Shown one piece after another: positions 789 through 22,039 of a stretch of 24,452 bases of DNA. Within the stretch, counting starts at the first letter, position 1. Every line of letters starts with the position of its first letter. The position numbers and the translations under genes are program-made. The notes beneath the pieces were generated by a model, which made no database searches, was not told the origin of the DNA, and saw nothing but the letters and a program-made list of their open reading frames with translations. Origin of the DNA: Methanobacterium sp. (GTDB lineage Archaea > Methanobacteriota > Methanobacteria > Methanobacteriales > Methanobacteriaceae); the NCBI GenBank assembly GCA_003166335.1, contig PMWA01000106.1:8219-32670 (forward strand), given 5' to 3'.

Positions 789-1634
789 TAGTTAAATACT
801 AAACTTTTTATACTTAGTTGTTAATATTTATTATTATGGCTAGGTGGGATAGAATTGGTATTAAACATCAAATGTCGGTTGAAGAACTTGATAAACGGAT
901 TAAATGTTTGGAAAAAGATGTTAAAGTTTTAAATCGGCTACATTTCATAAGAAATAGGTATCTTGGTGATTCAGTTGAATTAGCAGCATCTAAATCCGGC
1001 GTGACTAAACGAGTTGGGTATATTTGGCAAGAAAGATGGAATGAAGAAGGTTATGAGGGATTAATGCCAAAGTACGGCGGCGGGAGACCCGCAAAACTCA
1101 CTGAAAAAGAAAAAATCAATTTAAAAGAATTATTAAGCAAAAAAGACGATTGGACCACCAAAAAAATTAAAAAACTCATAAAAGACAAATTTGGTCCAGA
1201 TTTCTCCGAAAAACATGTTAGAACCATATTAAGAAATCTAGGACTAAAATTCGGCAAACCTTATCCCAAAGACTACAGAAGACCCTTTAATGCAGAAAAC
1301 AGTTAAAAAAACATAAATGCTATCATTAACAAAAATCCAGATGTCATAGGGTTTTTTGATGAATTTTCACCACAAAACACGGCCAACACCCAAAGATTGT
1401 GGTCAACGACCAAACCTGTTATAAGCAAAAACATTACACGTCTACGCGCCAACACCTTCGGATTTTATGCCGTTAAAAGGTCATAGCACAATTAATTTCA
1501 AAGAAAACTCACAAAACGCAAATATGTGATGAAATAGAAAAACACTTCAAAAAATTCTCACAATCAAAAACATATGCCAAAAAATGGATAAAAAAATTCC
1601 TATAAAAAAGTATAAAAAAATAAGTTTTTAACTA
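789..1634 (+). mobile_element. IS630-family insertion sequence, internally deleted and non-autonomous
   Basis: Imperfect terminal inverted repeats 787-815 and 1608-1636 (25/29 identical including the flanking TA). TA duplication at 787-788 and 1635-1636; reconstructed empty site AATTAATT. Encloses transposase fragments. Confidence 0.9.
836..1605 (+). pseudogene. IS630 transposase pseudogene
   Basis: 836-1306 encodes the HTH part (WQERWNEEGYEGLMPKYGGGRPAKL; winged-HTH HVRTILRNLGLKFGKPYPKDYRRP). After TAA the same frame continues 1307-1486 with the first catalytic motif IGFFDEFSPQNTANTQRLWS...RANTFGFYA. A frameshift near 1478 gives GHSTINFKENS, then the terminal peptide EKHFKKFSQSKTYAKKWIKKFL* (1525-1605). 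The second D (LDN) and YSPxLNPIE motifs are absent. Confidence 0.88.
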
Positions 1635-4628: not shown

Positions 4629-5086
4629 TGAATTAACCTTTTTATTATACTTTCCAGTTTATATGCAATATTAGAATCGTCTAATAAGATACCTAATTCA
4701 TAATTTTTTGAAAGTCCGGCTTTAGTTAAATTTGCAGAACCAATTAGGACTTTTTTCTTATCTGAAATTAGAACTTTGGCGTGCAAAAACTCGTTTGGAG
4801 CTATAAAAACTTTAATATGTGGATATTTTTCTTGAAGTTCAATTAGATCTAGCTGAATACTTTTGAAAAATTCCTTATCATTGTGAATAAATATTTCTAC
4901 ATTCACACCTCGCTGTAGAGCTTTTTCAATGTTTTCTAAAACCAGACTTTCAGTAATTATGAAAACTGTGAGAAGTAAGAATTTGTTTGATCTGTCTATC
5001 AATTCTTTAATTACATCTTCTGTTGGTGTAATTCCGTATCCAATCCATTTATCGCCAGTTGCAACGATTTCAGCATTTGAACTCAT
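4625..5086 (-). CDS. drmC: Phospholipase D-family nuclease, DISARM DrmC-like
   Basis: Single HKD motif HAKVLISD followed by GSANLT and NYELG. ATG directly abuts the drmB stop codon. Confidence 0.85.
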   Translation of the reverse strand: MSSNAEIVATGDKWIGYGITPTEDVIKELIDRSNKFLLLTVFIITESLVLENIEKALQRGVNVEIFIHNDKEFFKSIQLDLIELQEKYPHIKVFIAPNEFLHAKVLISDKKKVLIGSANLTKAGLSKNYELGILLDDSNIAYKLESIIKRLIQ

Positions 5087-6895: not shown

Positions 6896-6897
6896 AT

Positions 6898-9800
6898 TTA
6901 CACCCAAAACCCGGTTGTTTCTTCAATTTCTCTTAGTGATTGAGGAACGTTTTTAAATACAGTTTCAATATCATCTATATGTTCATGTTGAGGATCGCCT
7001 AGAATTACATTATATATAGGCTCATGCCACATACTGTATTCATTAAACTTAAGTTCATCGACATTATTTGCAATCTTTTTCCATCTTCTAATCTGTGTTT
7101 TAAGATATTTTAAAGCAAAGTCCACTGGTGCCGTATCTTCCTTATATATATAGTTTAATCGCGATTTCATATGATTATATAGAAATTCAATATCATCATC
7201 AGCATTATCTTCAGTAATGATAGTACCATCCTTATCATACCATTTTAACTGCATGTTATAAGCATTTCTTAAAAAAGCAACTGCTGAAGACCCCATAGCT
7301 TTCCAAAGAGCACCTTTAGAAAACGGTGATACGGAAACAGGTTCTATTCCCATATGAATTCTATAATGATAAGAAGGGAACGTTTCATAATGACTCAAGT
7401 CTCTGGGTCTTCCAGCTTTTAAAAACGTTACAACCAGTCCGCCATGTGATCTACCTATTCTACCAGTTGCTTGAATATAAGATCCAGTTGTTTTAGGTTG
7501 ACCATTAACAACCATCATTGAAAGATGAGAAATATCAACACCAGTGCCAAACATTGAAGTGGTGAAAATAGCATCATAATTAGGACTTTCTTCTTTATCT
7601 CTCTTTCCATCTCTCTCAATCTCACTAAGAATTAAAGGAATAGTGGTAGATGGCATCCTACTAGAAAGTTCAACAGTTAAATCATGATTAAGTATTCTAG
7701 GAGAACCTCCCGAGATTGCTTTTAATCTTTCTTCTATGTCCTCCCTATAAAGAGCTCCTCCTCCTCCTAATTCCCTAATTGCATTATAATATCCAACTAT
7801 TGTCCAGTAATACAGAATATTTTCCTCATTTCGATGTTCATTAGAAGATTTTAGGATTCTTGACCATAGCCTAACCTGAGGGGTCATAGGTCCTCTTCCA
7901 GGGGCATAAATACCCATATATATACGTCCACGTTTTCCCTCATCCCATGCAGATTCTGGAGCTTCCTCTTTTACGAAAAAACTATCATCTATATCTAATC
8001 CATATGGTGGAAATTGAAAGAGATCTTTTGAAAATAAGAAATTAACCTGTTCCTCTGCATTCTTGATTGTTGCTGTAGATGCTATATATTTAGGATTACC
8101 TCCTATTTTCTTAATTATGCCTTCAACAACTGCTTCATACAATCCAAAAAGGCTGCCTAATGGTCCATCAATTAAATGTAATTCATCCTGAATAATTAAA
8201 TCAGGAGCTTTAAATGGATCAACAGATATGTCATGTTCTTTACTGGATTCTGTTGCTTTATCAGGGAATAGTGTATCACGATGATATCCATAGAACTTAT
8301 TATATTTATTTATATTTCCAAACATTGATGCTGCTCTAGGTTCAAAAGCTAAACGTGCTATTTTATCTGCTGTACTAATTATTACGGTAGGGCATCTAGA
8401 GTATATTTGTTCATCGACAGTATAAGCTGGAATAGGAATTCTCGTACCTAATTTAAATGGACTTTCAATTATTCTTTCGAAATTACCATCTGGTAACTTA
8501 AATCTACTTTCTTCATGCTCCAATGGAACTCCTTCTCTCCAAAAAACATTATTAAGGTTACATTCAGGATTTGGGCACCAAATTTCAAAATCACTATATT
8601 CGTCTCTTTCTCGATGTCTTGCAAGATCTTTTATACTTCCAAAATATCCTTGCCTGTATAGATTTAATGATGCAATTTCAAATGTATCTTTTAACTCATC
8701 CCAAAGCTCGTCAATTTCTTTCTTTTCAATATTCTGATCCGTAAAAATAAATGAAAGAGTATAATAACCCTCTTCATGATTTTTATTTGATAAAGTAGCT
8801 TCTCCTATAAAATCTGTAGTTTCTTTTAAATTTTTGAGTTTTTTTGACACTTCAAGGTGCGATTCTGGCGATTTTACAACAAAATGTAGTTTATTATCTT
8901 CTTTAGGTAATCCTGTTTTAGGAATTGTAAGCCAAGAATCACATACTGGACATTTAATAACTTGGGCTGGTTCGCTAGAACTATTATCCCATTCATCTTC
9001 CCCATTTCCATCTCTAAGTAAAGAAATAGCTTGATTATCTCCTATCAGATGAAGTGGAGATACGGCACTACCTACCCACATGCCAGTTGAAAATCTAACT
9101 GATCCATAAATCCAGTCTCCATCGATATCACAAGAATTTGGCCTCCAACCGATGTATCTTTCTGAACTATGAGATACTCTGAGATACTCGGCAGCGGTAA
9201 TTAGCTTAATTGTTCTTCTGAACTGTTGAACTGTCAACAGCCTAAGAGTATATCTTGAGATTATAGAAGTACCAGCACCAGTTTCTATATGAGGATTATT
9301 AAAAGCAATAATTCTCCTTAAAGCCATTGTAAAAGCCATAATGGCAAGATATGATTCTGTTTTTCCTCCACCTGTAGATATCCATAATAAATCAAGTGTA
9401 TTTCTATCTTCTGAATCTTTATTGATTATTGATTCAATAGTCATAAGAAAAAAAGCAAGTTGAAATGGTCTCCATATGAATTCACCGTTTATTGTAGACC
9501 ATTCATGTTGTTGAGATATACATTTATTAGCAAAACAAAATGCAAGTTTTGCAATAGAGCTAGATTTGAGGGTATGCAAACCAAGTTTAATCCGTTCAAG
9601 TGCTTTAAGCTGCTTATTGATTAGATTATTTGCAATTTTTTTATATTTCTCAGGTAGTTCATCTTTCTCTTTAACGTTACTATTAATCCAATTTTCATAT
9701 TTTTCTAGAACAGGAACTAAAAGTTTATCAAAATCTTCATTAAACCATATTTCTGACAATTTCTTAGCGGATAAACTAGGAGATTTCTCATCCTCAGGTA

Positions 9801-10710
9801 ATTTAAAAGATGATAATGGCATTGGATATAAAGGAACAAATTCGCTCCTTAAATGTGGCTGAATAAACTCTTTTAACTCTTTTTTTTCCTCAAAATAAAA
9901 AGAGCCATCAGGCCATAAGAAATCAACATCAAACTTATCCATATAGTCTATATCGTGCCATAAAGCAGAACACATGTGTCCCAAGGCTTTAAAAGGGCGA
10001 TTTCTGTAAATAAAGTCTAATTCATTTTCTTCTTCATTAATTTGATCTAAATTAGGTAATTGTTGCTCATCAGAAAGGTTAATTCTAATAGATGGTTGAA
10101 AAATACAAGAGGATATATTTGGCTTAAATTTTTTTTCATCCAAATTTAATTCCAAATCATTAACAATATTCACTGTAATATGATATTTATCTCCTTCTAA
10201 AAGCGTTTTTTTAATATAAAGAAGGATTTCACCATCATTATCTATATTATCAAGGTTAAGGGTTTTTAATTCACTTTCACTACTATCAAGAGATATTTTT
10301 TTAATATCACAGTATGATCTTCTCTTCCATAAATTTTTCCCATCTTCTTGTTTTTCTTTGATCTTAAAATAACGTCCCCAAGTAATGCAAATTTTGAAAA
10401 CAGGCTTACTAGCTTTAATAATAAAAGAAATTCCGAATGATTTTGTTCTCATTCTTGGATCAATTTCTGAGGGAATTGTAGCGTCTATTTCCTCATTTGT
10501 CGAGTTATCATCTGGATTCAGATCTCCACCTTCTCTTGTAGATTCACTATCTGGATCTATAGCACCTTTATCATCTTTTAACTCATATTTTTGAGTTATC
10601 AAAACACCAGTTAAATATTCATCCCAAGGATCTTGGTCAATTTCCTCTTCAACACCATACCTTGGGCCGTAAACTTCTTTAATTAGTTCTTCAATGAATT
10701 CTTTTCTCAT
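6898..10710 (-). CDS. drmA: DISARM DrmA SF2 helicase, 1270 aa
   Basis: WRPFQLAF, Walker A TGGGKTESY, RYTLRLLTVQQF, DELHLI, ASTAT, TSMFGTGVD, YIQATGRIGR, RPRDLSHYE. Lies upstream of the DUF1998 and PLD genes. Start moved to ATG 10710, which has GGGGGGA at 10727-10721. Confidence 0.95.
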   Translation of the reverse strand: MRKEFIEELIKEVYGPRYGVEEEIDQDPWDEYLTGVLITQKYELKDDKGAIDPDSESTREGGDLNPDDNSTNEEIDATIPSEIDPRMRTKSFGISFIIKASKPVFKICITWGRYFKIKEKQEDGKNLWKRRSYCDIKKISLDSSESELKTLNLDNIDNDGEILLYIKKTLLEGDKYHITVNIVNDLELNLDEKKFKPNISSCIFQPSIRINLSDEQQLPNLDQINEEENELDFIYRNRPFKALGHMCSALWHDIDYMDKFDVDFLWPDGSFYFEEKKELKEFIQPHLRSEFVPLYPMPLSSFKLPEDEKSPSLSAKKLSEIWFNEDFDKLLVPVLEKYENWINSNVKEKDELPEKYKKIANNLINKQLKALERIKLGLHTLKSSSIAKLAFCFANKCISQQHEWSTINGEFIWRPFQLAFFLMTIESIINKDSEDRNTLDLLWISTGGGKTESYLAIMAFTMALRRIIAFNNPHIETGAGTSIISRYTLRLLTVQQFRRTIKLITAAEYLRVSHSSERYIGWRPNSCDIDGDWIYGSVRFSTGMWVGSAVSPLHLIGDNQAISLLRDGNGEDEWDNSSSEPAQVIKCPVCDSWLTIPKTGLPKEDNKLHFVVKSPESHLEVSKKLKNLKETTDFIGEATLSNKNHEEGYYTLSFIFTDQNIEKKEIDELWDELKDTFEIASLNLYRQGYFGSIKDLARHRERDEYSDFEIWCPNPECNLNNVFWREGVPLEHEESRFKLPDGNFERIIESPFKLGTRIPIPAYTVDEQIYSRCPTVIISTADKIARLAFEPRAASMFGNINKYNKFYGYHRDTLFPDKATESSKEHDISVDPFKAPDLIIQDELHLIDGPLGSLFGLYEAVVEGIIKKIGGNPKYIASTATIKNAEEQVNFLFSKDLFQFPPYGLDIDDSFFVKEEAPESAWDEGKRGRIYMGIYAPGRGPMTPQVRLWSRILKSSNEHRNEENILYYWTIVGYYNAIRELGGGGALYREDIEERLKAISGGSPRILNHDLTVELSSRMPSTTIPLILSEIERDGKRDKEESPNYDAIFTTSMFGTGVDISHLSMMVVNGQPKTTGSYIQATGRIGRSHGGLVVTFLKAGRPRDLSHYETFPSYHYRIHMGIEPVSVSPFSKGALWKAMGSSAVAFLRNAYNMQLKWYDKDGTIITEDNADDDIEFLYNHMKSRLNYIYKEDTAPVDFALKYLKTQIRRWKKIANNVDELKFNEYSMWHEPIYNVILGDPQHEHIDDIETVFKNVPQSLREIEETTGFWV

Positions 10711-10890
10711 TTTAAGTAATTCCCCCCAATTAGATAAAATTTTATAAGTTCGTTTAACTATAATAATATCAATATTAATCAATTTAATATGATTTACTAT
10801 TAAAAAGAAATAGAAACAGTTAACTGCAAATTAATTATATAAATTAGAAATAATTACATTAAATAACAAATAGGGGTAAGTTGATGCTAA
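10711..10890. promoter_or_regulatory. Divergent promoter region between drmA and the methyltransferase
   Basis: 180-nt AT-rich gap between head-to-head genes. Palindromic TATA-like TTATATAA at 10835-10842; purine-rich RBS-like motifs before both starts. Individual boxes are uncertain in AT-rich DNA. Confidence 0.5.
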
Positions 10891-12129
10891 ATGATAATCA
10901 TTGATATGTTTTCTGGTGGAGGAGGATTATCAGAAGGTTTTTTTAGATCTGGATACGAATTTGTTTCACATATTGAGATGAATCGTTATGCATCAATGAC
11001 TCTTGAAACACGTGCATTATATCATCATTTAGATAATAAAAATGATTACTATGCATATTTAAAAAGTGAAATTAATAGGGATCATTTTTTAGGTGAAAAT
11101 GAAGATTTATCAAAACAAGTCCGGGAATCTGTAATAAATGAAGAGATATCAAGTGAAACTAAAACTCCAATCATTAAGAAAGTTAAAAATAAGATGAATG
11201 ATATGGACATCGATAAAATAGACGGAATCATTGGTGGACCACCTTGTCAAGCTTATTCAGTTATAGGTAGAAGTAGATCTCCGGATTGTATGAAAAATGA
11301 TCCTCGTAATTATCTTTATGAATATTATGTTGAATTCTTGAAGGAATTTAATCCAGATTTTTTCATCTTTGAAAATGTTCCCGGAATGCGTTCAGCAAAA
11401 AAAGGATATATTTTAAAAGATTTTAAGAATAAAGTTAATAAACTTGGGTATAATACTGAAGCAAAGATCTTAGACGCAGGAAACTTCAATGTTCTCCAAT
11501 CCCGAAAACGTTTGATAATAATTGGCCATAAAACTGATAATAGCTTTTTCGAAACCATCGGCACATCAAAAAAGAAAAAATATAATGTTTCATCTATTTT
11601 AAATGATCTACCTATCCTTAATCCTGGTCAAGGAACAGATTCTCAACAACAATACAGAAAAGAGAAAATATCTGGATATTTAAATAATTTTAATATAAGA
11701 ACCAAAAAAGATGTTTTAATACATCATCAAGCTAGAAAACATAATGAAAGGGACAGAAAAATTTATAGACTCGCCATTAACACGTGGAATAAAGAGAAAA
11801 GGCGAATAAAATACAAAGAACTACCAGAAGACCTAAAAACCCACAAAAACAGGAAATCATTTGAAGATAGGTTTAAAGTTATAGCTGCTAATTCCAAATC
11901 TCATACCATAGTTGCACATATCTCTAAGGATGGGCATTATTATATTCATCCAGACATCAAACAAGCAAGATCGATTACTGTAAGAGAAGCTGCCAGAATC
12001 CAATCTTTTCCAGATAACTACAAATTTGAAGGACCCAGAACTTCACAGTACGTACAAGTAGGGAATGCAGTTCCTCCATTAATGGCAGAAAACTTGGCTC
12101 AGAAAACTAAGGAATTCATTGATAGTTAA
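10891..12129 (+). CDS. dcm: DNA (cytosine-5)-methyltransferase, probable DrmMII
   Basis: Motifs I (DMFSGGGG), IV (GGPPCQ), VI (ENV), VIII (QSRKR), IX (RSITVREAARIQSFPD) and X (QVGNAVPP). Adjacent to drmABC. Target site cannot be read from the sequence. Confidence 0.95.
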   Translation: MIIIDMFSGGGGLSEGFFRSGYEFVSHIEMNRYASMTLETRALYHHLDNKNDYYAYLKSEINRDHFLGENEDLSKQVRESVINEEISSETKTPIIKKVKNKMNDMDIDKIDGIIGGPPCQAYSVIGRSRSPDCMKNDPRNYLYEYYVEFLKEFNPDFFIFENVPGMRSAKKGYILKDFKNKVNKLGYNTEAKILDAGNFNVLQSRKRLIIIGHKTDNSFFETIGTSKKKKYNVSSILNDLPILNPGQGTDSQQQYRKEKISGYLNNFNIRTKKDVLIHHQARKHNERDRKIYRLAINTWNKEKRRIKYKELPEDLKTHKNRKSFEDRFKVIAANSKSHTIVAHISKDGHYYIHPDIKQARSITVREAARIQSFPDNYKFEGPRTSQYVQVGNAVPPLMAENLAQKTKEFIDS

Positions 12130-12130
12130 T

Positions 12131-12778
12131 ATGGGAAAAAGTGAAATTATACACGAAAGAATATTAAAATGGAGTAAAAGTAACTTAAGAGTTTTTCCAT
12201 GGAGAATAACATCAGATCCCTATAAAATTTTAATAGCAGAGATCATGCTGCACAGAACCCAAGCATCTCAAGTTGAAGAAGTCTATAAAACGTTTGTAGA
12301 GAAATACCCTGACTTTAAATCTATATGTAAAACAGGAAAACTAAAAATTTTAAGTGAGCTATCAAGATTAGGGTTAAAATGGAGGGCAAAATTTCTTTAT
12401 CAGCTTTCATGCACTTTATCTCAAGATTATAATGGAATAATTCCATTTGATAAAGGTAAACTTTTAGCACTTTCAGGGGTGGGTCCATACATATCTTCAG
12501 CATTTCTATGTTTTGCATACGATTCACCGGAACCAATACTTGATACAAACACGGTCAGGGTAATCGGACGCTTATTCGGACTGAAAATAACAGATTCATC
12601 AAGAAGAAGTAAAAAATTTGAAGATCTGATGAAAGAACTTGTTAATCTCGGAAACTGCAGATTATTTTCTCTTACTTTAATTGATTTTGCAGATGCTATA
12701 TGTAAATCAAAAAATCCATTGTGTAATAAATGTATGCTAAATACCATTTGTGATTATTATTCAGATATTATAGAATAA
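12131..12778 (+). CDS. mig: HhH-GPD [4Fe-4S] DNA glycosylase, Mig-type T:G/U:G mismatch glycosylase, 215 aa
   Basis: FPWR..DPYKILIAEIMLHRT, HhH LSGVGPY, catalytic LDTN and Fe-S loop C-x6-C-x2-C-x5-C at the C-terminus. No MutY C-terminal domain. ATG lies 1 nt after the MTase stop. Confidence 0.8.
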   Translation: MGKSEIIHERILKWSKSNLRVFPWRITSDPYKILIAEIMLHRTQASQVEEVYKTFVEKYPDFKSICKTGKLKILSELSRLGLKWRAKFLYQLSCTLSQDYNGIIPFDKGKLLALSGVGPYISSAFLCFAYDSPEPILDTNTVRVIGRLFGLKITDSSRRSKKFEDLMKELVNLGNCRLFSLTLIDFADAICKSKNPLCNKCMLNTICDYYSDIIE

Positions 12779-12896: not shown

Positions 12897-14654
12897 CTAA
12901 TTTTTTTCTTCTGATATTTGTTTTATTACGTTTTCAATGAATTTGCCCAGTCTTTCTTCATCATTTACAGATTTTCCTGGTGTAAGGGGAAATGCTCCAA
13001 CTGATGGAATAATTTTATTTGTATATTCCTGATAGATTTTCGGAATTCTTCCAGGATATAGAACATATGCTCCTAAAGTATTTGCTATAGCATCTTTATA
13101 CGTGTGCATTTTATAAATATCATCATTTATAAAGCTGGTTTTAATGTCACATTTATATTTAGCATCAAAATGCAGTAAGTATTGTTTACTATTGTTTGTA
13201 ATAGTTAATGAGTAATCTGGTACCATTTTCAGAGAATAAGAGTGATTTTCAGGGTCTTTAGATGTGAATGTATTATTGTAGGCTAATTCCAGCTCTAAAT
13301 CAGTGTTATCAATAATAAACTTCTGTGATGATTCTTTACTTCTTTTAATTTGAATGGACCATTCTTTTCTATTGAAGTTAAATATTGATTCATAATTTGT
13401 TTTAGTATTTTGGAGTTTATTTAAGATTTTTATTAGTTTAAGATAGCACCAGTATTCGTATAGTTGGCTTAGTTTTTGTTGGAATCCTTTTATATCTTCT
13501 TTAATTTCTTCACATTGGAAATTGAATGCAAATTCAAAAATTAGGAAATAATCGAGAATATCTCGGTATCCTTCTTTTTTTTGGAGTACCTGTGAATTAG
13601 AGGGCAAATTATAGAGTACTCCAACTTCATTAAGCCACCCATCAAAAATGTACTCCTGGATAATTTCAGCATATTCTCTAGTTTTTTCGGCAGGATATCC
13701 TTCTATTCTTTCAAAATCTATGTAAATAATCATTTCAATTAAGAGTTCATTCAAAAGTTCTAAAAAATATTTGACGAATCTATTCTCAGGAGTATCTAAT
13801 GTGTCTTCATAATTTTTTTGGCTAATCCTTTTGGGAACATAATTCTCCATTTCCAGTGGCCATTTAGGAGGTGTTACATCTGTTTTTGAAAGATTTCCTG
13901 GATTTGATATTAAATTTATTAAATCTGTTGGTCCGATAGATGAGGCAAATGCTGTGGGCACTGTTTCAAAATATTGTTCGAGTATTTTATGGGGATCTCT
14001 CCTGATGTATCCATAAGAGCTTAAAAGATTTTCCGGACGGAATATATACTCCAAAAACATGAAATCTTCATAAAAACTCTTTTTTACTCTTTGTTGAAAA
14101 TTTATATATTTAAAAGTGGGAGATTTTTCATAAAAAATCAGACCTGATGCTGCTTTAGCCAGGTCAGCAATCATAGATGGATAATGGTTTTCGTAGTTCA
14201 TTTTTTTGGAACGTACCTCAAAAGGAATTTTGACAGATTTCAAACCATCAACTTCCACATCGAAGAAAGACTGACCTACATAGCTTTTAAAATTAAGAAT
14301 TCCACCATAGATATTCATATCAAACATTAAAGGTTTTAAAACAGGATCATTACCAACATTTTCCAGTGTAGGAAATCTTACAGTATTGGAGTTGGATTTT
14401 TCAGGAGTGAATATTAATTGATACTCGGTTTCTTCCAATAAAAAAATATTTTTCGAATCTAGAAATAATAATGGTGTATGATTGTCGAGTTTAGGAACAT
14501 CTGGAACGTTTTTAAAGCAAATTTTAGAATTGTTCATGTATACTGAGAAATCTGTACTCTTATGTTCATGCTCATGAAGTTCGTTTAATTTAATAACCCC
14601 TATAGGGTTACCTTCACTGTCAGGGAGTTTTATAATGATTTCCTGTGCTGACAT
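12897..14654 (-). CDS. mcrC: McrC-like nuclease (DUF2357 plus PD-(D/E)XK)
   Basis: DTPENRFVKY, GYRDIL, LYEYWCY, PDYSL...FDAKYK, DIYKMHTYKDAI, AYVLYPG. Starts 11 nt downstream of the McrB-type GTPase gene. Confidence 0.9.
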   Translation of the reverse strand: MSAQEIIIKLPDSEGNPIGVIKLNELHEHEHKSTDFSVYMNNSKICFKNVPDVPKLDNHTPLLFLDSKNIFLLEETEYQLIFTPEKSNSNTVRFPTLENVGNDPVLKPLMFDMNIYGGILNFKSYVGQSFFDVEVDGLKSVKIPFEVRSKKMNYENHYPSMIADLAKAASGLIFYEKSPTFKYINFQQRVKKSFYEDFMFLEYIFRPENLLSSYGYIRRDPHKILEQYFETVPTAFASSIGPTDLINLISNPGNLSKTDVTPPKWPLEMENYVPKRISQKNYEDTLDTPENRFVKYFLELLNELLIEMIIYIDFERIEGYPAEKTREYAEIIQEYIFDGWLNEVGVLYNLPSNSQVLQKKEGYRDILDYFLIFEFAFNFQCEEIKEDIKGFQQKLSQLYEYWCYLKLIKILNKLQNTKTNYESIFNFNRKEWSIQIKRSKESSQKFIIDNTDLELELAYNNTFTSKDPENHSYSLKMVPDYSLTITNNSKQYLLHFDAKYKCDIKTSFINDDIYKMHTYKDAIANTLGAYVLYPGRIPKIYQEYTNKIIPSVGAFPLTPGKSVNDEERLGKFIENVIKQISEEKN

Positions 14655-14665
14655 TATTTTTAGAC

Positions 14666-17600
14666 CTAATTGGTAAATGAAACAAAACGTTTTTCTTGAA
14701 GAGTTTTACCCATCCATTGTAACTTTTTAGCGCTACTGGGATATAATAAAAATTCTTCATTCAATTCTTGTAAATACCATATAGAGTTTTCTAATTCATC
14801 TGTATAACATAATTTGAACAGTTTTTCAAGGGTAATATCCAACTCTCGTTGCGATCCATGTATTTTGGGGAGCATTTTTTGCATAATCTGTGCATCGAAG
14901 TACCGCCTCCAGTTAATCCAATCATTAGGAGATTTTTCATATAGCCATGCTACATACATGAATCTTAATATCTCATCTATTACTCGGAAACCAAAATCAA
15001 AACCAGCTTTACCTAAAGTACTCTGGAAATTATTAATCTCATCAGCTAAAAAGCTCCATAAATCACTATTTTCCGGAATATGAACATTTTTTAAAAGATC
15101 TTCTAACTCTTTAACTTTTGTTTCCCTAATATTTAGATCAGAAAGAGGATCTTCTAGATATTTAATATCACCATTAAAATTGTTACTTTCAAATTCTCCT
15201 AATATATAGTTTTTAGCTGGGTAAGTGGCAAATTCTATGGTGTTAGCTCTATCTAAAACTTTAGGACTGAACATGTAGGTTGTCTCATCTACGTTGACCG
15301 TTCCAACTACTAAAATATTGTTTGGTATTTCCAATTCTTTAGGTATATTTAATGGGTTTTCAGGATTATTGTTAGAATGTAGAGGTATTGTTTTACCACT
15401 TTCCATTGCCGATAAAAAGTCAGCAAAATACCGTTCGACATGTGAGAGGTTCATTTCATCTAAAATAAGTATATAAGGATTATTACAGTCATTTAAGCAT
15501 TCTAATAACAGTTCTAAGGATCTTGTGTTTTGATATTCTTGTGTAATGACATTATAAAATCCGAGTAAATGTCGATTTTCTGTCCAATTAGCCCCAACAG
15601 GAATTATTTGATAACTGCCTTTATTTTTTGTCTGTAAAAATTCTGCATATAACTGGGCGATTTTAGTCTTGCCCGTGCCAGAATTACCGGTTAATATAAC
15701 AAAAGGTTTGACTTTGAGGGATAATAAGAAATTTTCAATGGTTTCAGAAGTGAATAAATAGTTTTTTTCTCTTAAGTATTCATTAAATGATTTATTTATT
15801 ATAATTTCAGTGAGGGAATTGTAAAGTTCTAACATTTTATTTAGATCAGATTCTAACTCTTCTTCATTGGGTAAGTTATCTGATGGATAAAATTTAGAAT
15901 AAATATTGGCCACTTCATAAAATGGGATATAACTCCCCTTTTTTCCCTTCAAATCAATTTCATTATTAAAATCAACTGTATCCAATTCGTTAAGCAATTG
16001 ACGGTATTCATCTGATTTTGTTTTTAAATCTTTTTTGTAGTTTTCATCTCGGTAAATTTCCCCAACACCCTGTCGCAGTGAAAGATATAATCCACTCATA
16101 TCTTCTCGTAAAATATAGTTAACAAAAATACCTTGATTAGGCGAATTTGTTATTTCTCGGTGCATTAAGGCTACATAAGGAGAATAATGCCATTTATCCC
16201 ATCCACTGGAGTAAATCTGATAATCTTCTCCAGTTTTTCTCGTTAACAAATTTGGTAATTGAGTTGCTAGGATATCCTTTACTCTTTGCTGTTTTATAGA
16301 AAATAATATACCTTCTTTAGCTGGTTTGTATTTATTTAAGAGGTCTTCTAATAAGTTTCTAATGTTTATGGGTTGAGTTTGAGAGGTTTTTACTTTAAGC
16401 CATTCTTCGAATTTTTGCCTATTACAAGAGTAATTACCTAAACTATCCTCACACATCCAGTGACAGAATGCATCAAAAGTTTCAAAATCTAATTCTGGGA
16501 TGAAATTTGAAAGTTTTTGAACCATTTTATGCAATTTTTCATTATTATCAATATATTCCTCTAATGTACCGGAAATTTTGTCATTATCGCCTAAAATTTC
16601 TGATATTAAATTATGAGTTGATACAGTTTTCCTGTTAATAAACCAGAATTCCGGTTTTAAATAATATAATGTAGGTGTAAGCATTGCCGTCTGAAAACCT
16701 TTCTTATAATCCCCTTTTTTGAAATTACTGATTAAACTTTTTTGGACTTCTTTATCATCAGTTTCCATCAATTTATTAATTAAATCACTAATAGCAATTG
16801 TTAAATTAGGTAAATCTTCATCTTTATATCCATATGCTTTAATATCACCTACTGCGACTGGAGCAATAGCAGGCTGTTTAATGGGCAATAAATGGTTTAT
16901 CGGAGGATCAATTATTTGACTTATTGCTTGTTCATCATTTTGAATAATATCGAAATACTTTAGAACTTTTTGACGTTCCAAATCATATTTATTAATATGC
17001 AAACTTCCTTCTTCGGATTCTAAAAAGGTAGTTTTAAATTCTTGGAATAATTCATTTATACAATTAAATGATTCAGTAATTGGGGTGTTGCTATTTTCCT
17101 CAATTTCATCAAATATCTCTTTAAAATTTGAGGATTTTTTTATATAAGTATTCTTTATTGCATTCCATTTTTTTGGTGTTATAGAGGTTATTGTTTGCTG
17201 AGCAAAGAAATAATCATCATCCATTTTTATAGGATCAGTTATTAACCATTCGACTTCTCTATAGTGGAAGTATTCTTTATCAGGATCTAAATTTAATTTA
17301 AATGATTCATTAGGACTAATATAATCGCTCCTAATCACTCCAATGCCTAAAATTCTTTTATAACCATCATTAGCAACAACTAGATCTCCTATTTGCATCA
17401 CATTTCCAAAGTTCCAGATCATACTAGTGTTGGCTCCAACCGTATCCTTTTTACTACATTTTTTTAATGCATCATGCAGAGCATCATATGTTTTATAACT
17501 CGTAAAACTTCGTCTTTCAAATTCTTTACATCCAAACCAACCAACTCCAATATAACCCTTTTCCTTAAAAATTGGCCACATTACTTGTCTTTTTTGGTAA

Positions 17601-19192
17601 TCTCCGGGGGCTATTTTCCAAATATTGGGATTATTAATATGTTTATCTAAATCAACATCTTTATCTTTGACTCTAGACTCCAAGTCTATTAATTGATTAT
17701 AAATGTTTAGGATATCTTTAAAGTCAGTTTCAAGATTTTGTTCTGATGGTATTAATTCAGAATTATAAGATTTCCCATATATTGATGTTTCTATCCAGGG
17801 GGAATCATTTAAGTTAGTTTTAAATTTATTGGGCACTTCATATGAACTCTCTATTATTTTCTTTATTTCTGCTTTTCGGATGTCAAAATAATTTTTTCTG
17901 TCGGACTCGGTCCAATTTGGTTTTTTTTCATCCATTACTTTTGCTGCGTGACTCCAACTTAAACTAATTGATAAAAAGACTTTTTTCATATCTTCTTTGA
18001 AAATGTAATGAATATAATAAGGATATTGTTCGTATTTGTCAATTTCTTCTATTTTTTTATCGTAAATGATTGTCCATGGATTTTTGAACCAGCTGCCCGC
18101 TCCTTGAAAGTGGCTATAAGCATGATAATTATGATTATTAGATATTAATGGGTCATTAGCTACTTTTTCTAGATGTTTTGGGAATTTTCTGCTAAAAAAA
18201 ATTGATAGTTCGTGTTCTTTAACTTTTTCTTTGTTATTGAAGGCTTTGGGATATTTTTCAAAAACAGTTTCCAAAAATTTCCGTATATTGAAGTAATTTT
18301 TATGGTTTTCTAAATCATGGAATTCTGTTTCTAACTTGGGATTTTTCTCTAATATCAGTTTTTTAAGCTCATTATATTCTTCATCAGACATTTTAAAGTG
18401 AGATCCTTGGAATTTAAAATGTGTCTTTTTAACAGGTGCCCATTGACTCAAAATAGGATTTTCTATTAATTCTTGTAAGGTTATAGGTTCAGGAATCTCG
18501 ACAATTTTTTGCACGTTCACTGCTAGTCTATTCCATTTTTTTCTTATTCCGGGATCTTCAAATGGGTCTGTTATTGCCTTTAAAATGAATCCAATGCTAC
18601 TATAAGGCGATCCAGTGTAAATAAATATTGTATCATCTTTTTTAACTTCTTTAGCACTGTTCCAAATAATTTCGTCTGAATTTTTAAGTTCATAATAAAA
18701 ATCTTTATTAATTGCAAAAGTCCATTTTTTATTCTCTTTTGAACTTTCTATATTTTTAATAATCTGGTTGTTTGGAATTATGTTATTTATTTCACTTTCT
18801 AACTCAGGATTTTTATCTAAAATAAGCTGTTTAATTTCTTCCCATTCTTTATTAGGTACTTCAAAAAATGAGCCCATAAAATTCTTTCTAACTATATTCC
18901 AATTGGCTAAAATAGGATTATTTTTTATATCCTTTATTTTTAGAGGATTTTTTAGATTGATCTTATGATTAAGATCGATGCATATGTCCCAATTATCACG
19001 ATATCCTTTATCTTCGTATGGATCGGTTTTTGCTGTGAAAATATACGCTATATCGCTATATGGACTCCCCCTATAAATGAGTACGATATCGCATTTTTTT
19101 GCCTTATCTGTACTAGCTCTTTTAAGCTCGTCATCTTCATCAAGTTTAAGATATTCAAGAACTTCTTTCGTAGTATATATCCATATTTTCAC
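14666..19192 (-). CDS. mcrB: McrB-family AAA+ GTPase with a ~1130-aa multi-domain N-terminus
   Basis: Walker A GNSGTGKT, Walker B LILDEMNL, McrB signature GTVNVDETT (NxD type), SPKVLDRAN, FGFRV, QKMLPKIHG. GTG start with GGAGGG RBS at 19204-19199. Confidence 0.93.
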   Translation of the reverse strand: MKIWIYTTKEVLEYLKLDEDDELKRASTDKAKKCDIVLIYRGSPYSDIAYIFTAKTDPYEDKGYRDNWDICIDLNHKINLKNPLKIKDIKNNPILANWNIVRKNFMGSFFEVPNKEWEEIKQLILDKNPELESEINNIIPNNQIIKNIESSKENKKWTFAINKDFYYELKNSDEIIWNSAKEVKKDDTIFIYTGSPYSSIGFILKAITDPFEDPGIRKKWNRLAVNVQKIVEIPEPITLQELIENPILSQWAPVKKTHFKFQGSHFKMSDEEYNELKKLILEKNPKLETEFHDLENHKNYFNIRKFLETVFEKYPKAFNNKEKVKEHELSIFFSRKFPKHLEKVANDPLISNNHNYHAYSHFQGAGSWFKNPWTIIYDKKIEEIDKYEQYPYYIHYIFKEDMKKVFLSISLSWSHAAKVMDEKKPNWTESDRKNYFDIRKAEIKKIIESSYEVPNKFKTNLNDSPWIETSIYGKSYNSELIPSEQNLETDFKDILNIYNQLIDLESRVKDKDVDLDKHINNPNIWKIAPGDYQKRQVMWPIFKEKGYIGVGWFGCKEFERRSFTSYKTYDALHDALKKCSKKDTVGANTSMIWNFGNVMQIGDLVVANDGYKRILGIGVIRSDYISPNESFKLNLDPDKEYFHYREVEWLITDPIKMDDDYFFAQQTITSITPKKWNAIKNTYIKKSSNFKEIFDEIEENSNTPITESFNCINELFQEFKTTFLESEEGSLHINKYDLERQKVLKYFDIIQNDEQAISQIIDPPINHLLPIKQPAIAPVAVGDIKAYGYKDEDLPNLTIAISDLINKLMETDDKEVQKSLISNFKKGDYKKGFQTAMLTPTLYYLKPEFWFINRKTVSTHNLISEILGDNDKISGTLEEYIDNNEKLHKMVQKLSNFIPELDFETFDAFCHWMCEDSLGNYSCNRQKFEEWLKVKTSQTQPINIRNLLEDLLNKYKPAKEGILFSIKQQRVKDILATQLPNLLTRKTGEDYQIYSSGWDKWHYSPYVALMHREITNSPNQGIFVNYILREDMSGLYLSLRQGVGEIYRDENYKKDLKTKSDEYRQLLNELDTVDFNNEIDLKGKKGSYIPFYEVANIYSKFYPSDNLPNEEELESDLNKMLELYNSLTEIIINKSFNEYLREKNYLFTSETIENFLLSLKVKPFVILTGNSGTGKTKIAQLYAEFLQTKNKGSYQIIPVGANWTENRHLLGFYNVITQEYQNTRSLELLLECLNDCNNPYILILDEMNLSHVERYFADFLSAMESGKTIPLHSNNNPENPLNIPKELEIPNNILVVGTVNVDETTYMFSPKVLDRANTIEFATYPAKNYILGEFESNNFNGDIKYLEDPLSDLNIRETKVKELEDLLKNVHIPENSDLWSFLADEINNFQSTLGKAGFDFGFRVIDEILRFMYVAWLYEKSPNDWINWRRYFDAQIMQKMLPKIHGSQRELDITLEKLFKLCYTDELENSIWYLQELNEEFLLYPSSAKKLQWMGKTLQEKRFVSFTN

Positions 19193-19232
19193 TATAATCC
19201 CTCCAAAATCATTTTTAAATAATGAATTTGAA

Positions 19233-21602
19233 TTAATTTGCTTTTATTTCTAAAGGGTTACTGCACTTTTTATTCTTGCATCTTAAAATCTTCAAATCCC
19301 TAAAGTAACCTAAAGGAGCCCGACATGTGGGACACATAAGTGATTCGTCGATTTCATGAATTGAACTACAAAAACGTTTTACTTCATCTATCGAAACGTT
19401 TCCAGTCATTAAATTATCATGTGATAGGAGGTTTCCCATCATTATTGTCTTATTTAACTTATCAAAGGAATTTTTAATATTTTCTTTAAATTTTTCATCT
19501 TTGATAAGTTTTATTAATCTATATTTAGCAGGCTCGAGTAGATCGCTTACCTCGTAATTTTCTGAATATTTTGCAGGTATTTTTGCCATAGTTCTGTTGC
19601 AGATATCCTTTAATAACCATTCTAAATAACGACGTCCTTCATTTCCTGCACAGTGTTTATCCCCTTTGTCGATATTATCCATTATTTTTTCCCATCTAAC
19701 TTTATATGGTTGAATATCTGGACCATTATCTTCATCCCATTTAACAATTGTATAGTTTTTAAATTGGTTGCTTATATTATGGATGCGTTGAGCTGCTCTC
19801 AGTTGTTCAAACCAAATCCCATCGTGTGTAGTTATAATAAATTGTTTATCATCGAATTCTTCAAATAAAAGTTGACAAACGTTTTCACGGTGTCTAGAAT
19901 CCATTGTTGAGACTACATCATCTAAAACTAGTAATGGGAAGTCTTCATAGACTTTTTTATATAAAGCTAGGAAAATGCATAAACCCAAAGAATCAAGATG
20001 GCCTTCACTACTAAGTGCCCTTGGATCTTCATCTTCTTTTCCAAAAATTGTCATTCTTAAATTGGTACTGCCTTTCTTATTAAGATCAATCCCTAGTTTA
20101 ATATCCTCATAGGATTCTTGAGGATGTAATATATCATAATAATGTTCCACATTCTCTTTGATTGTGTCATAAACTTCCTGAATTTTTCTTTTTTTAATGG
20201 CAGAGAATTCTGTATAAATTGTTTTAGAGATTAACAAGCGATTTTCTGCAATCTTAAGTTTTTGTCGATCTTCATCTTGATTTTTAATCTTTTCATCAAG
20301 ATCAGATAAAAGATTATAAAGTGCTCTAAGCCGTTCATCCTTTTCTGAAGGCTTAATAGACCTTGTTAATTTTTCAGACACTACTTTTATATTTTCAAAA
20401 AGTTTTCTTAATTCCTTATTAAATAGATTAAATTCATCTCTTGAAAATTCAGCTTGGAGGAATGAATTGATTGTAATGAGCTGAAAATTATTTAAAGCTT
20501 CAATTTTGAAATCAATTTCATCCTTAAATTCCCTTAATTCTTTAAAATAATCCACATTTGCTGATAAATCAACTAAATATTTATGGAGCGATCGAAGTTT
20601 GTCTTTAACCTGATCGAGTGAGAGATTCAATTTATCTTCGCTTTCTTTAAGAGATTCAAGACGTTTTAAACGTTCATTAATCTTTTCTAGAAGTTTATCA
20701 CCGTTAACTTTATTTTCACATAAAGGGCAGTTAACAGTATCTTTTTCAATGATTTCTAAGGAATTTTTGAGTATTTTCATCAGAGATAATTCAGATTGAT
20801 CATGACTTTTAATCAGTTTTTTATAATCATCTGAATCATAAAGTTCTTGATTTATTTCACCTAAAACTAATGGTGCTTCTTTAATTATCCTAAAAATATT
20901 ATTTAAAGCACCAATTAACACATTATCTGATGATTTGGTCATTTCATTGATTTCATTCATACGGTCTTCCAGTTCTTTAACCGAGATAACTTCTAAGCCT
21001 TCTTTTTCAAGAAATTCATTTAAAGACCGTATAATATTCTTAGAATCTTGAATTTTAAGTAGTTCATTTACTTCTTCGCCTAATCTTTCAATATTATCCT
21101 CTATTTTTTCAACGTCCTCTGTCAGATACTTTTCTGCCTGAAACATTGCAGTGTCAATTTTTCCTAATTCATCAGCACCTATTATATAACTAATAAATTT
21201 ATAACGTTCAGCCGGAGTGGTGTTAATCAAATTTAGAATTTGAGATCTCCTTAAAATAAACTGTCCAATTTTTGCAAGGTTAACATTATCCTGAAGACTT
21301 TCAGGGAAAGAAGGAGCTGAATTAAACGTCCTAGTGATATTATGGCTTCCGGGGTTGATTTTTAAAGTTACACTAGACTCATCAGGATTTCTAGCATTAG
21401 GGCCATGTTCTTTAAGTGCAAGCGGCCCCTTAGACGTTAAATGAGAAATCTTACCTGTAAAAAAGAATTCAATTGCATCAATAACGGAACTTTTGCCCGT
21501 TCCATTCTCCCCTAACAACAATAAACTTTTTCCTTGAAGATCGAGATCTAATATATCTGGAATTCCTCTAAAAGCAGTAATTTTAATACTTTTGATCTTC
21601 AT
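19233..21602 (-). CDS. Rad50/SbcC-like ABC ATPase with zinc hook, C-terminal HEPN-like domain and Zn ribbon (RloC-like architecture)
   Basis: FRG, Walker A GENGTGKS, coiled coil with central CPLC (aa ~292), signature variant LSSEGH, LDDVVSTMD, ITTHD. C-terminal RRYLE...NLLSH, then CPTC...CKNKKC. The ATPase call is secure; the HEPN call is by motif. Confidence 0.8.
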   Translation of the reverse strand: MKIKSIKITAFRGIPDILDLDLQGKSLLLLGENGTGKSSVIDAIEFFFTGKISHLTSKGPLALKEHGPNARNPDESSVTLKINPGSHNITRTFNSAPSFPESLQDNVNLAKIGQFILRRSQILNLINTTPAERYKFISYIIGADELGKIDTAMFQAEKYLTEDVEKIEDNIERLGEEVNELLKIQDSKNIIRSLNEFLEKEGLEVISVKELEDRMNEINEMTKSSDNVLIGALNNIFRIIKEAPLVLGEINQELYDSDDYKKLIKSHDQSELSLMKILKNSLEIIEKDTVNCPLCENKVNGDKLLEKINERLKRLESLKESEDKLNLSLDQVKDKLRSLHKYLVDLSANVDYFKELREFKDEIDFKIEALNNFQLITINSFLQAEFSRDEFNLFNKELRKLFENIKVVSEKLTRSIKPSEKDERLRALYNLLSDLDEKIKNQDEDRQKLKIAENRLLISKTIYTEFSAIKKRKIQEVYDTIKENVEHYYDILHPQESYEDIKLGIDLNKKGSTNLRMTIFGKEDEDPRALSSEGHLDSLGLCIFLALYKKVYEDFPLLVLDDVVSTMDSRHRENVCQLLFEEFDDKQFIITTHDGIWFEQLRAAQRIHNISNQFKNYTIVKWDEDNGPDIQPYKVRWEKIMDNIDKGDKHCAGNEGRRYLEWLLKDICNRTMAKIPAKYSENYEVSDLLEPAKYRLIKLIKDEKFKENIKNSFDKLNKTIMMGNLLSHDNLMTGNVSIDEVKRFCSSIHEIDESLMCPTCRAPLGYFRDLKILRCKNKKCSNPLEIKAN

Positions 21603-21762
21603 CAGAATCTACCAACATTATTGCTTTAAGAATTTTAGCTTTAGAATCAAGATTACCATTATTAAATCTAATTTTAAGGTCATCTAAAACAGCAATGGGA
21701 AATTCTTCATTCTTTTCCAATTTCTGAAAAAATTCTTCAAAAATTTCTTCTACTACCCCCAT
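21583..21762 (-). CDS. Small helical hypothetical protein, 59 aa
   Basis: ATG at 21762 preceded by AGGGTGG RBS (21774-21768). Overlaps the ATPase start by 20 nt. Amphipathic helical pattern (EEIFEEFFQKLE). Confidence 0.7.
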   Translation of the reverse strand: MGVVEEIFEEFFQKLEKNEEFPIAVLDDLKIRFNNGNLDSKAKILKAIMLVDSDEDQKY

Positions 21763-22039
21763 ATGAACCACCCTATACACAAAATCAATTTATTCCACTC
21801 TACTCTTTTCTTCCAGTTTCCAGAACATTTCCTCCTTAACTGTTCCAGAACTGATGGAGGAACTTTGGCATCCAATGAAATTTTTTAACCCCCTCTCTTA
21901 TGAATAAGTGCTTTTCTTCTATTATTCATACTTTGTGTTTTAAATTTTTGAATAACTTTAATTATATTACTTATAACTGTTATTAGCAATCAAAATTCAT
22001 GTAAAATAATAGTTTAATATATCAAAAGGAGGTGATGAT

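Follow-up and report, generated by a model that had tools for sequence, protein, structure and literature searches.

In silico analysis of a 24,452-nucleotide (nt) stretch of Methanobacterium sp. DNA (contig PMWA01000106.1, positions 8,219 to 32,670; hereafter the window) indicates that it encodes a conserved pair of genes, the first specifying a small acidic protein and the second a Rad50/SbcC-like zinc-hook ABC ATPase which is predicted to be fused to a HEPN-type domain. We consider it probable that this pair represents an RloC-like, DNA-triggered ribonuclease (RNase) module, which often, though not always, accompanies a self-sufficient McrBC restriction system of the NxD branch such as that found directly downstream in the window. 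The open reading frame (ORF) listing places all four genes, for the small protein, the ATPase, McrB and McrC, co-oriented on the minus strand, and the coordinates agree with an earlier note on this DNA in that the small ORF and the ATPase gene overlap by 20 nt (21583-21602), while gaps of 40 nt (19193-19232) and 11 nt (14655-14665) precede the McrB and McrC genes, respectively. The features on which the argument rests are listed here.

21583..21762, minus strand: small acidic ORF of 59 amino acids (aa) from an ATG at 21762 (ORF listing)
21583-21780, minus strand: the same small ORF in its GTG-start form of 65 aa (ORF listing)
19233..21602, minus strand: predicted Rad50/SbcC-like zinc-hook ABC ATPase of 789 aa (Pfam, PADLOC, homologues and structural model)
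20718..20729, minus strand: CPLC zinc hook, ATPase residues 292-295, in the apical loop between the coiled-coil arms
19341..19697, minus strand: putative HEPN-fold helical domain, residues 636-754 (model, fold search and conserved residues)
19632-19634 and 19434-19436, minus strand: residues 657 and 723, the two positions of an arginine swap (64-member alignment)
19236..19334, minus strand: predicted C-terminal four-cysteine zinc ribbon, C757, C760, C775 and C780 (sequence, alignment and model)
19193..19232, minus strand: 40-nt spacer between the ATPase and McrB genes, with a GGAGGG ribosome-binding site and no run of T longer than four
14666..19192, minus strand: McrB-type GTPase of 1508 aa with a GTG start (Pfam and PADLOC)
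12897..14654, minus strand: McrC of 585 aa (Pfam)

The ATPase, its C-terminal domain and the small partner gene

The ATPase matched SMC_N of Pfam (E 3.6e-15, residues 3-611), the PADLOC LmuB models PDLC03859 (E 4.4e-32) and PDLC03865 (E 1.7e-27) and, across coil and head only, a single PDC-S06 model of PADLOC (E 1.7e-10), and its sequence matches in the PDB are SMC and Rad50 heads. It carries a Walker A motif (GENGTGKS), a signature (SSEG), a Walker B/D-loop (VLDDV) and a switch histidine (TTHD), and the Walker A lysine, C292-P-x-C295, the SEG signature, the Walker B DD and the switch histidine are kept in 29 of 29 aligned homologues. When the alignment was extended to 64 family members the Walker A GK, the Walker B DD and the switch histidine were each present in 64, and the CxxC hook in 62, the other two being gapped at these columns. 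The full-length model (pLDDT 84.5) comprises two head lobes (residues 1-140 and 499-607), helical, coiled-coil arms (144-285 and 301-492) joined by a loop that holds the CPLC motif, a beta hairpin (614-632), a helical bundle (636-754) and a terminal beta zinc ribbon. Sequence and model together identify the protein as a putative Rad50/SbcC-like zinc-hook ABC ATPase fused to a HEPN-type domain, that is, as a protein of RloC-like architecture.

Folded alone from a 23-sequence alignment, the C-terminal domain gave a model with a pLDDT of 89.2, for which VIA-align returned the HEPN protein 2hsb as best match (Z 10.1, rmsd 2.5 over 113 residues), followed by 4nqf (Z 8.9), 2jpu (8.8) and 1ufb (8.5); HEPN proteins occupied ranks 1-4 and most of the top 20, and later rows included Roquin, the sacsin HEPN domain, AbiA, Csm6, the HEPN toxins 5yep, 7ae2 and 8xdj, and AbiV. 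Because one fold is enriched in the search and polar residues are conserved, a HEPN fold is the best reading of this predicted domain. The residues invariant in 29 of 29 C-terminal parts are R657, Y659, L660, E661, G723, N724, H728 and N730, and the motif is laid out as R657-x3-E661 followed by N724-x3-H728, with S727 preceding the histidine. Among the 64 members R657 is present in 60 and E661 in 63; N724 and H728 are found in 54 of the 56 and 51 of the 57 members, respectively, that align at these positions. Whereas the canonical HEPN motif is Rx4-6H, the window protein has G723-N724-x3-H728 and lacks the canonical arginine. Four members with a glycine at position 657 (L011, L026, L031 and L035) all carry R723, and thus the classical R-N-x3-H, while none of the 60 members with R657 carries R723. 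This exchange suggests that R657 substitutes for the canonical arginine, and a catalytic-type arginine has apparently been relocated from one helix of the putative HEPN domain to another; that an arginine is available from either position argues for a catalytic role. The four cysteines of the terminal zinc ribbon are likewise invariant in 29 of 29 homologues, and in the 64-member alignment the first cysteine pair is widely kept, the second being aligned in only 25-31 members. The earlier note had described a zinc-hook Rad50-like ATPase with a HEPN domain, and the invariant CPLC, the confident domain model and the HEPN-dominated fold search all uphold that description.

A relation to RloC is also visible at profile level, as alignment of the family against a 25-sequence RloC alignment with hhalign gave a probability of 96.7% (E 3.9e-10) across 669 columns, with hook placed on hook. 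In excerpts of Davidov & Kaufmann 2008 (PMC2610378) the RloC/PrrC triad is given as Arg-X3-Glu-X36-52-His, the histidine often being preceded by a serine.

Full-length relatives of about 797 aa and 38-85% identity were recovered from archaea and bacteria in a large-database search. Their hosts are methanogens (the closest being Methanobacterium), Methanoperedens, Asgard, Bathyarchaeota, Nitrospirae and Petrotoga, and the family occurs mainly in archaea and diverse uncultured bacteria. When 1.84 billion representatives were screened with a C-terminal-domain profile, matches numbered 2,103 clusters at E<=0.001, 1,542 at E<=1e-10 and 165 at E<=1e-30; the clusters are 50% identity representatives, and the family size of about 1,500 refers to the threshold of E<=1e-10. 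Among the best 150 clusters, 100 are at least 700 aa long with the domain at the very C-terminal end, and of these 98 have a CxxC within residues 231-360 and 95 a Walker A within the first 80 residues; a further 14 are 500-699 aa long and 36 are shorter than 500 aa, many of the latter being probably fragments. A tblastn search with the C-terminal domain found none in PLSDB plasmids or INPHARED phages at E<=1e-5, albeit as a single-sequence search that is weak on absence. The ATPase is present in 5 of 41 close relatives and in 59 of 301 genomes of the phylum, a patchy distribution of the defence-island kind that marks it, as judged from these genomes, as an accessory gene.

Relatives carry only the source names 'AAA family ATPase', '(recombinational DNA repair ATPase) RecF' and 'SbcCD ATPase subunit', and the last two, along with weak NCBIfam matches, well short of the cut-offs, to RecF and an archaea-specific SMC-related protein, would suit a RecF-, RecN- or Rad50-like housekeeping protein for DNA repair or chromosome maintenance, unrelated to defence. 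The patchy distribution, the neighbours of defence-island type, the fused HEPN fold with its conserved catalytic-type residues and the absence of an adjoining nuclease partner of the Mre11/SbcD kind all speak against such a role, which we regard as very improbable.

The small protein has a pI of 4.4 and a net charge of approximately -6.5. It returned no family match in Pfam, NCBIfam or PADLOC, and in the ESM Atlas only unnamed clusters with scores of at most 0.84, which is chance level. A phmmer search located a homologue immediately 5' of the ATPase gene in six genome-contig loci, and a hidden Markov model (HMM) of the small protein did so in 14, all matches abutting the ATPase start; the alignment of 15 sequences displays a common pattern, and the homology spans phyla. 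For Methanobacteriota, 52 stretches reaching up to 8.5 kb to each side of the ATPase gene were drawn from the 59 genomes with an ATPase match and combined with the window into a set of 53 loci, of which 25 were positive with the HMM. By position alone, a same-strand ORF of 35-120 aa, ending within -60 to +120 nt of the ATPase start, was present in 71 of 77 loci (76 distinct loci, since L001 and L194 are one place), and almost all of these ORFs have a pI of 4.1-5.4. Since its homologues hold the same position in other genomes, the small ORF is a real gene, and with such an acidic ORF next to the ATPase start in 71 of the 77 loci the conserved unit is two genes and not four; the suggestion in the earlier note that the small ORF belongs with the ATPase was well founded. 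In a bacterial sister clade an extra small gene stands before the pair, with weak GIY_YIG_2 matches (E 0.003-0.014) that lie below the cut-off (L016, L019 and L022), while in the window's clade there is no GIY-YIG gene beside the pair.

Linkage to McrBC and other restriction systems

The McrB protein comprises two EVE and two MrcB_N domains, unassigned middle regions and an AAA_5 GTPase (Pfam), the GTPase having a Walker A GNSGTGKT, a Walker B LILDEMN and the signature N-V-D-E, and the protein is assigned to the NxD branch as defined in excerpts of Bell et al. 2024 (PMC11090510). In PADLOC it matched the candidate-system model PDC-M26A (E 1.2e-48), and the McrBC pair matched PDC-M26A and PDC-M26B. 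McrC combines the McrB-activating domain DUF2357 (E 5.3e-48) with the PD-(D/E)xK nuclease domain PDDEXK_7 (E 4.4e-32). As both of the parts that define McrBC are present, McrB and McrC are predicted to constitute a complete type IV restriction system, and the multi-reader NxD McrB with its McrC described in the earlier note was thereby corroborated.

That note had gone further and proposed a single four-gene system, in which the ATPase-HEPN protein and its small partner would guard this McrBC, be co-transcribed with it and be triggered by McrBC-made ends or by inhibition of McrBC. It also looked to recurrent linkage of ATPase and McrBC across genomes, which was found in part. An McrB of the window's GTPase type is present in nine of the 53 Methanobacteriota loci (the window, L146, L168, L176, L179, L185, L159, L160 and L161), being broken in L160 and partial, at the edge of the examined stretch, in L159, and McrC lies beside McrB in eight. 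Other MrcB_N/EVE+AAA_5 proteins are encoded in six more loci (L153, L155, L156, L163, L169 and L193), and in total an McrB-type gene lies within 8.5 kb of the ATPase gene in 15 of 53 loci. None is within reach in the remaining 38, some of whose contigs are short. Of particular relevance to the four-gene proposal is that order and spacing recur with divergent partners, as an McrB-type gene follows on the same strand within 1 kb in six loci, at 40 nt in the window, approximately 47 nt in L179, 92 nt in L163, 505 nt in L169, 629 nt in L176 and 803 nt in L168. The orientation nonetheless varies, as the two genes diverge at approximately 290 nt in L153, L155 and L193, while McrBC lies upstream in L160 and L161. 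Among the ten closest relatives of the ATPase an McrB-type gene is found near only two, L146 (with a 2-kb gap) and L002 (divergent). Candidate McrB proteins beside the ATPase in L143, L161 (589 aa), L166 and L153 (777 aa) were identified by Pfam as TPR proteins and rejected.

The neighbours found elsewhere are of several kinds. Across 75 genome-contig loci, phmmer matched the window's McrB only in L002 and L012 and its McrC in none. A Pfam survey of 96 neighbours in 17 loci revealed an McrBC pair upstream in L020, type I genes in L016, RloC in L019, Eco57I-like methylases in L001 and L036, a type III-like pair in L013, SNF2 with a methylase and PLD in L009, and ordinary, housekeeping genes in L005, L007 and L010. 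In other phyla the ATPase is neighboured by restriction-modification (R-M) systems of type I, IIG or III or by housekeeping genes, and the restriction contexts of other family members include an Eco57I-like methyltransferase with a PLD-helicase. Further direct neighbours are hsdM (L144), BrxD with a DEAD helicase (L143, L147 and L166), UvrD-PD-(D/E)xK proteins and TPR-NucS-type nucleases. TPR proteins with a NucS_C/YhcG-type PD-(D/E)xK end were observed beside the ATPase at L143:10897-12996, L161:6514-8283 and L166:12387-14519. The obligate linkage to one restriction system that typifies PrrC is not a property of this ATPase family, given the 38 of 53 loci that have no McrB-type gene within 8.5 kb and the neighbours that vary across phyla.

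McrC of this type is present in 96 of the 301 genomes of the phylum; 26 genomes have both ATPase and McrC, 33 the ATPase only, 70 McrC only and 172 neither, which amounts to an odds ratio of 1.94 (Fisher p 0.03), a value that is uncorrected for relatedness and hence overstated. While this ratio and the 15 linked loci favour the four-gene proposal, 33 of 59 ATPase genomes are without this McrC type and 70 of 96 McrC genomes without an ATPase match. The latter include the 96%-complete genome (G016) that holds the closest McrC (83% identity), and for the next McrCs (73% and 70%) the ATPase is either on a different contig or separated by 95 kb or 22 kb. Among seven linked loci the identities of ATPase and McrC are uncorrelated (Spearman 0.15, p 0.50, from 21 non-independent pairs). 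L179 has the nearest McrC (53%) and McrB (64%) to those of the window among linked loci, yet its ATPase is only 26% identical, and between L146 and L168 McrC is 63% and the ATPase 25% identical. This incongruence implies that the two units were combined several times independently; such repeated combination would be expected of genes that share an island, or that gain a selective advantage from proximity, rather than of a co-inherited four-gene system, and a functional coupling of the ATPase module to restriction is plausible on this comparative evidence.

The junctions between the genes were also inspected in metatranscriptome assemblies, three studies of which (X15, X16 and X17) hold this stretch, X15 covering all 30 bins. 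One X15 contig bridges the ATPase-McrB junction (17384-20082), another spans McrB-McrC (13971-15620), and the junction of small ORF and ATPase is spanned by contigs of X15 and X16. These contigs show neither strand, level nor a single transcript, and the libraries may contain DNA. Contigs of two different studies, X16 and X17, stop at 19247 and 19241, respectively, in the last ATPase codons, and a AATAAAAA stretch lies approximately 25 nt upstream of these ends on the coding strand (region 19241-19278); the ends give a weak hint of a separate McrB start, possibly from an internal archaeal promoter. In a further X15 contig (depth 16) position 21728 is followed, after 13 other letters, by position 13502; this contig could derive from a variant that lacks the bulk of the four genes, or it could be chimeric.

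An integrated four-gene system would be in keeping with the shared strand, the 40-nt gap with its ribosome-binding site and without a long T run, the one RNA-library contig across the ATPase-McrB junction and the precedent of PrrC, a HEPN ATPase held by an R-M enzyme according to excerpts of PMC3710099. With no McrB-type gene within 8.5 kb in 38 of 53 loci, most McrC genomes devoid of the ATPase, identities that are incongruent, two RNA contigs that stop just before McrB (a weak point) and a bridging contig that does not equate to a single transcript, we judge the four-gene proposal unlikely, and it is not upheld as a single system. The fallback offered in the earlier note, that the genes are independent neighbours in a defence island, lies nearer to the evidence, albeit that the recurrent co-directional placement leaves room for a looser coupling.

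The surrounding island

The window has a G+C content of approximately 30%, and judged by the predicted functions of their neighbours the four genes are situated in a defence island, the other features of which are as follows.

6898-10782, 5087-6907 and 4625-5086, all minus strand: DISARM-type genes DrmA, DrmB and DrmC, respectively (very strong PADLOC scores)
10891-12129, plus strand: DrmMII C5 methylase (very strong PADLOC score)
1638-4628, minus strand: protein of 996 aa beside the DISARM genes, overlapping DrmC by 4 nt
12119-12778, plus strand: HhH-GPD protein, a 'type II nicking endonuclease' in PADLOC (E 2.7e-45; Pfam and PADLOC)
3-455, plus strand: C-terminal end of another SbcC/Rad50-like ATPase (SbcC_Walker_B and SMC_N; Pfam)
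818-1306, plus strand: HTH_32/HTH_23 transposase-like protein, following the SbcC/Rad50-like end at the left edge of the window (Pfam)

The 996-aa protein has no match in Pfam, NCBIfam or PADLOC and may be the missing fifth component of the DISARM set. The first 11 nt of the HhH-GPD gene are shared with the 3' end of the C5 methylase gene, and the gene is convergent with that of McrC; its product probably accompanies the cytosine methylase as a mismatch-repair protein. Apart from a 53-aa ORF, which is unrelated, the window is non-coding 5' of the small ORF. A 46-nt stretch upstream of the small ORF (21896-21941) recurs inside otherwise unrelated metagenome contigs, for example a 6.5-kb X3 contig, and several contigs diverge from the window at 21896, at 21941-21949 and at 22038; possible explanations are a repeated element or a boundary at which the island has recombined. 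No further usable variants of the cassette came from metagenome or metatranscriptome contigs placed on the window at 80% likeness.

Proposed mechanism and comparison with known systems

In the reading that we favour, the small acidic protein and the ATPase-HEPN protein would act independently of McrBC, likely as an abortive-infection or dormancy back-up with a predicted RNase activity. By analogy with RloC and Lamassu, as presented in excerpts of PMC2610378, PMC3458546, PMC3874168 and PMC12663957, the ATPase would dimerise by way of its zinc hook, and its heads and coiled coils would act as the sensor of DNA ends or of otherwise aberrant DNA. An ATP-driven rearrangement would free or pair the HEPN domains, and these would then cut tRNA or other RNA, bringing translation to a halt. 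The small acidic protein may bind the ATPase so as to restrain or modulate it, either as an antitoxin-like brake or as a remnant adaptor akin to LmuC or to the C-terminal part of SbcD. Placement of the module before restriction operons, McrBC in this instance, could allow restriction-made ends, or a failure of restriction, to feed the sensor. A bolder version would have the large, unnamed zinc-hook ATPase-HEPN family, each member with an obligate tiny acidic partner, act as a DNA-end-triggered suicide or dormancy switch, repeatedly placed before McrBC, type I, IIG and III operons so that the ends they make, or those laid bare by a virus upon failure of restriction, serve as the alarm, McrBC cutting of modified viral DNA leading in the window to translational shut-down; this we put forward tentatively, as a possibility that is rather doubtful at present.

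A number of observations weigh against an RloC-like RNase module. The assignment of the HEPN fold received no support for the isolated domain from Pfam, NCBIfam or PADLOC, and Foldseek returned no PDB match for it at E<=0.001, the rows of highest probability being HEPN proteins (2hsb 0.84, 1o3u 0.82 and 2q00 0.72) which all fall short of that threshold; furthermore, helical bundles can attain a Z of approximately 10 through a shared arrangement of their helices. The HEPN histidine is absent from five of the 57 aligned members (L158, L160, L170, L184 and L188), which have R, K or E in its place; these keep the hook and the ATPase motifs and may be inactivated or repurposed copies. With regard to RloC, the Glu-to-His spacing of the window ATPase is 66, outside the 36-52 of RloC, and in the visible part of the full-length hhalign alignment the C-terminal helices are paired otherwise than in the motif reading, so that a residue-level equivalence of the triad is tentative. 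The HEPN domain alone, when aligned with the RloC alignment, reached an hhalign probability of just 5.5%, that is, no profile similarity, while hhalign of the family or of the C-terminal domain against a single RloC-type sequence paired only the Walker B region or nothing. The window ATPase did not match Pfam AAA_13 (PF13166) at E<=0.01, and a precomputed PF13166 match was found in just 9 of the 120 homologues listed; no PrrC model figured among the best 25 of the 29 PADLOC families matched, and in PADLOC the head is nearer to LmuB (E 4.4e-32) than to the PDC-S06 models (E 1.7e-10) matched by the RloC-family protein P0123. Binding of the small protein to the ATPase is proposed from gene order and conservation. 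Finally, McrB-type linkage in 15 of 53 loci is far above random placement, and a functional tie to McrBC is therefore possible.

New elements are the family itself, which is distinct, large and falls outside AAA_13, along with its small partner, zinc ribbon and arginine swap, and the frequency with which it lies beside McrB-type genes in methanogens. To our knowledge RloC was long the only Rad50-like protein wired to an RNase that had been studied, its cellular trigger being still debated, and we know of few abortive-infection systems that have been examined in archaea. The present family has the wiring of RloC, with a zinc ribbon and a nearly universal small partner in addition. Should the small protein prove to be a brake, and DNA ends the trigger, the mechanisms of RloC and Lamassu would be connected through this family, which would also provide a tractable archaeal example of abortive infection. 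The repeated co-directional placement before restriction operons leads to the idea that restriction and RNA-level suicide are used in sequence. For annotation purposes the pair is best called as a two-gene module, with the ATPase named neither LmuB nor RecF, and adjacency to McrBC should not be equated with a four-gene system.

Lamassu (LmuA-LmuB-LmuC; DdmABC) is the first of the known systems with which the module is to be compared, and DNA-end sensing is an established trigger of Lamassu according to excerpts of PMC12663957. The resemblance consists of an SMC-like ATPase of the zinc-hook, SbcC/Rad50-derived type whose head scores best against LmuB, preceded directly by a small gene, just as, in the same excerpts, the LmuC gene directly precedes LmuB and the SbcD C-terminal piece directly precedes SbcC. 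The module might accordingly be viewed as a compact, fused Lamassu, in which an LmuB-like SMC protein carries a C-terminal HEPN effector, the small ORF is a miniature LmuC and DNA ends are sensed; a search for LmuB homologues also recovers RloC (PMC12663957, in excerpt), in line with these families forming one continuum. The HEPN-type effector is, however, fused to the ATPase here, as compared to the separate LmuA of Lamassu, and neither a separate LmuA gene nor the LmuB-binding C-terminal domain of LmuA was detected in the window's operon with Pfam or PADLOC. The small gene occupies the position of LmuC, yet its product of approximately 60 aa has no detectable LmuC similarity and no PADLOC or Pfam match. 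P0123, of the RloC family, also matches LmuB models (E 2.7e-14), and LmuB matches thus appear generic for zinc-hook SMC-like heads. A fused HEPN domain with R-x3-E...S-H is moreover a hallmark of RloC/PrrC in the excerpts of PMC2610378, and a Lamassu identity for the module is in our estimation distinctly unlikely.

The McrBC of the window resembles other members of the NxD branch (excerpts of PMC11090510) in having NxD followed by a glutamate, in its McrC of DUF2357 and PD-(D/E)xK, and in having a DNA methyltransferase nearby, as in the NxD group that is not CoCoNuT. It differs from that branch in its unusually long array of readers (two EVE and two MrcB_N domains) and is without coiled-coil fusions, hence not a CoCoNuT. 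The terms 'RloC', 'ABC ATPase' and 'zinc hook' are absent from the excerpted text of that McrBC census, the supplements of which may list such neighbourhoods.

Fusions of ABC ATPase and HEPN linked to R-M systems were described in 2013, PrrC being an ABC ATPase-HEPN RNase which adjoins a restriction system and was proposed as a second line of defence (excerpts of PMC3710099); it is always located within a type I R-M locus and is silenced by the R-M system (PMC3458546, in excerpt). As in EcoprrI, the ATPase-HEPN protein of the window is encoded next to a DNA restriction system, whereas its linkage is facultative and extends in the family to several kinds of restriction system. PrrC has neither coiled coil nor zinc hook, both of which are predicted for the window ATPase.

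It is RloC, a Rad50-like zinc-hook anticodon nuclease characterised by anticodon-loop cleavage with excision of the wobble nucleotide, that the window ATPase most resembles in design. The likeness comprises a single chain of approximately 750-800 aa, an ABC head split by a coiled coil with an apical CxxC, a C-terminal HEPN-type domain, predicted to be an RNase, with what may be an equivalent R-x3-E...S-H motif, an occasional R-M linkage and an end-to-end profile alignment. Both families can be found together, as P0123 in L019 is a genuine RloC-family protein (AAA_13 E 3.4e-135; motifs CQFC, 'RRFLE' and 'YSHE'), the relatives of which are named 'wobble nucleotide-excising tRNase' by JGI. At L019:693-6433 its gene was observed approximately 400 nt before a GIY-YIG-like gene, a small ORF and an ATPase gene of the present family, and this short island thus holds two different zinc-hook HEPN ATPases. 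The window ATPase differs from RloC in its additional C-terminal zinc ribbon, in the near-obligate small acidic partner upstream, none being mentioned for RloC in the excerpts of PMC2610378, and in the unmatched AAA_13, the HEPN domain that is not profile-alignable and the longer Glu-His spacing. As AAA_13 is not matched, the ATPase is filed as a separate, uncharacterised family despite its architecture, a family which, on sequence grounds, lies outside AAA_13 and is RloC-like in design.

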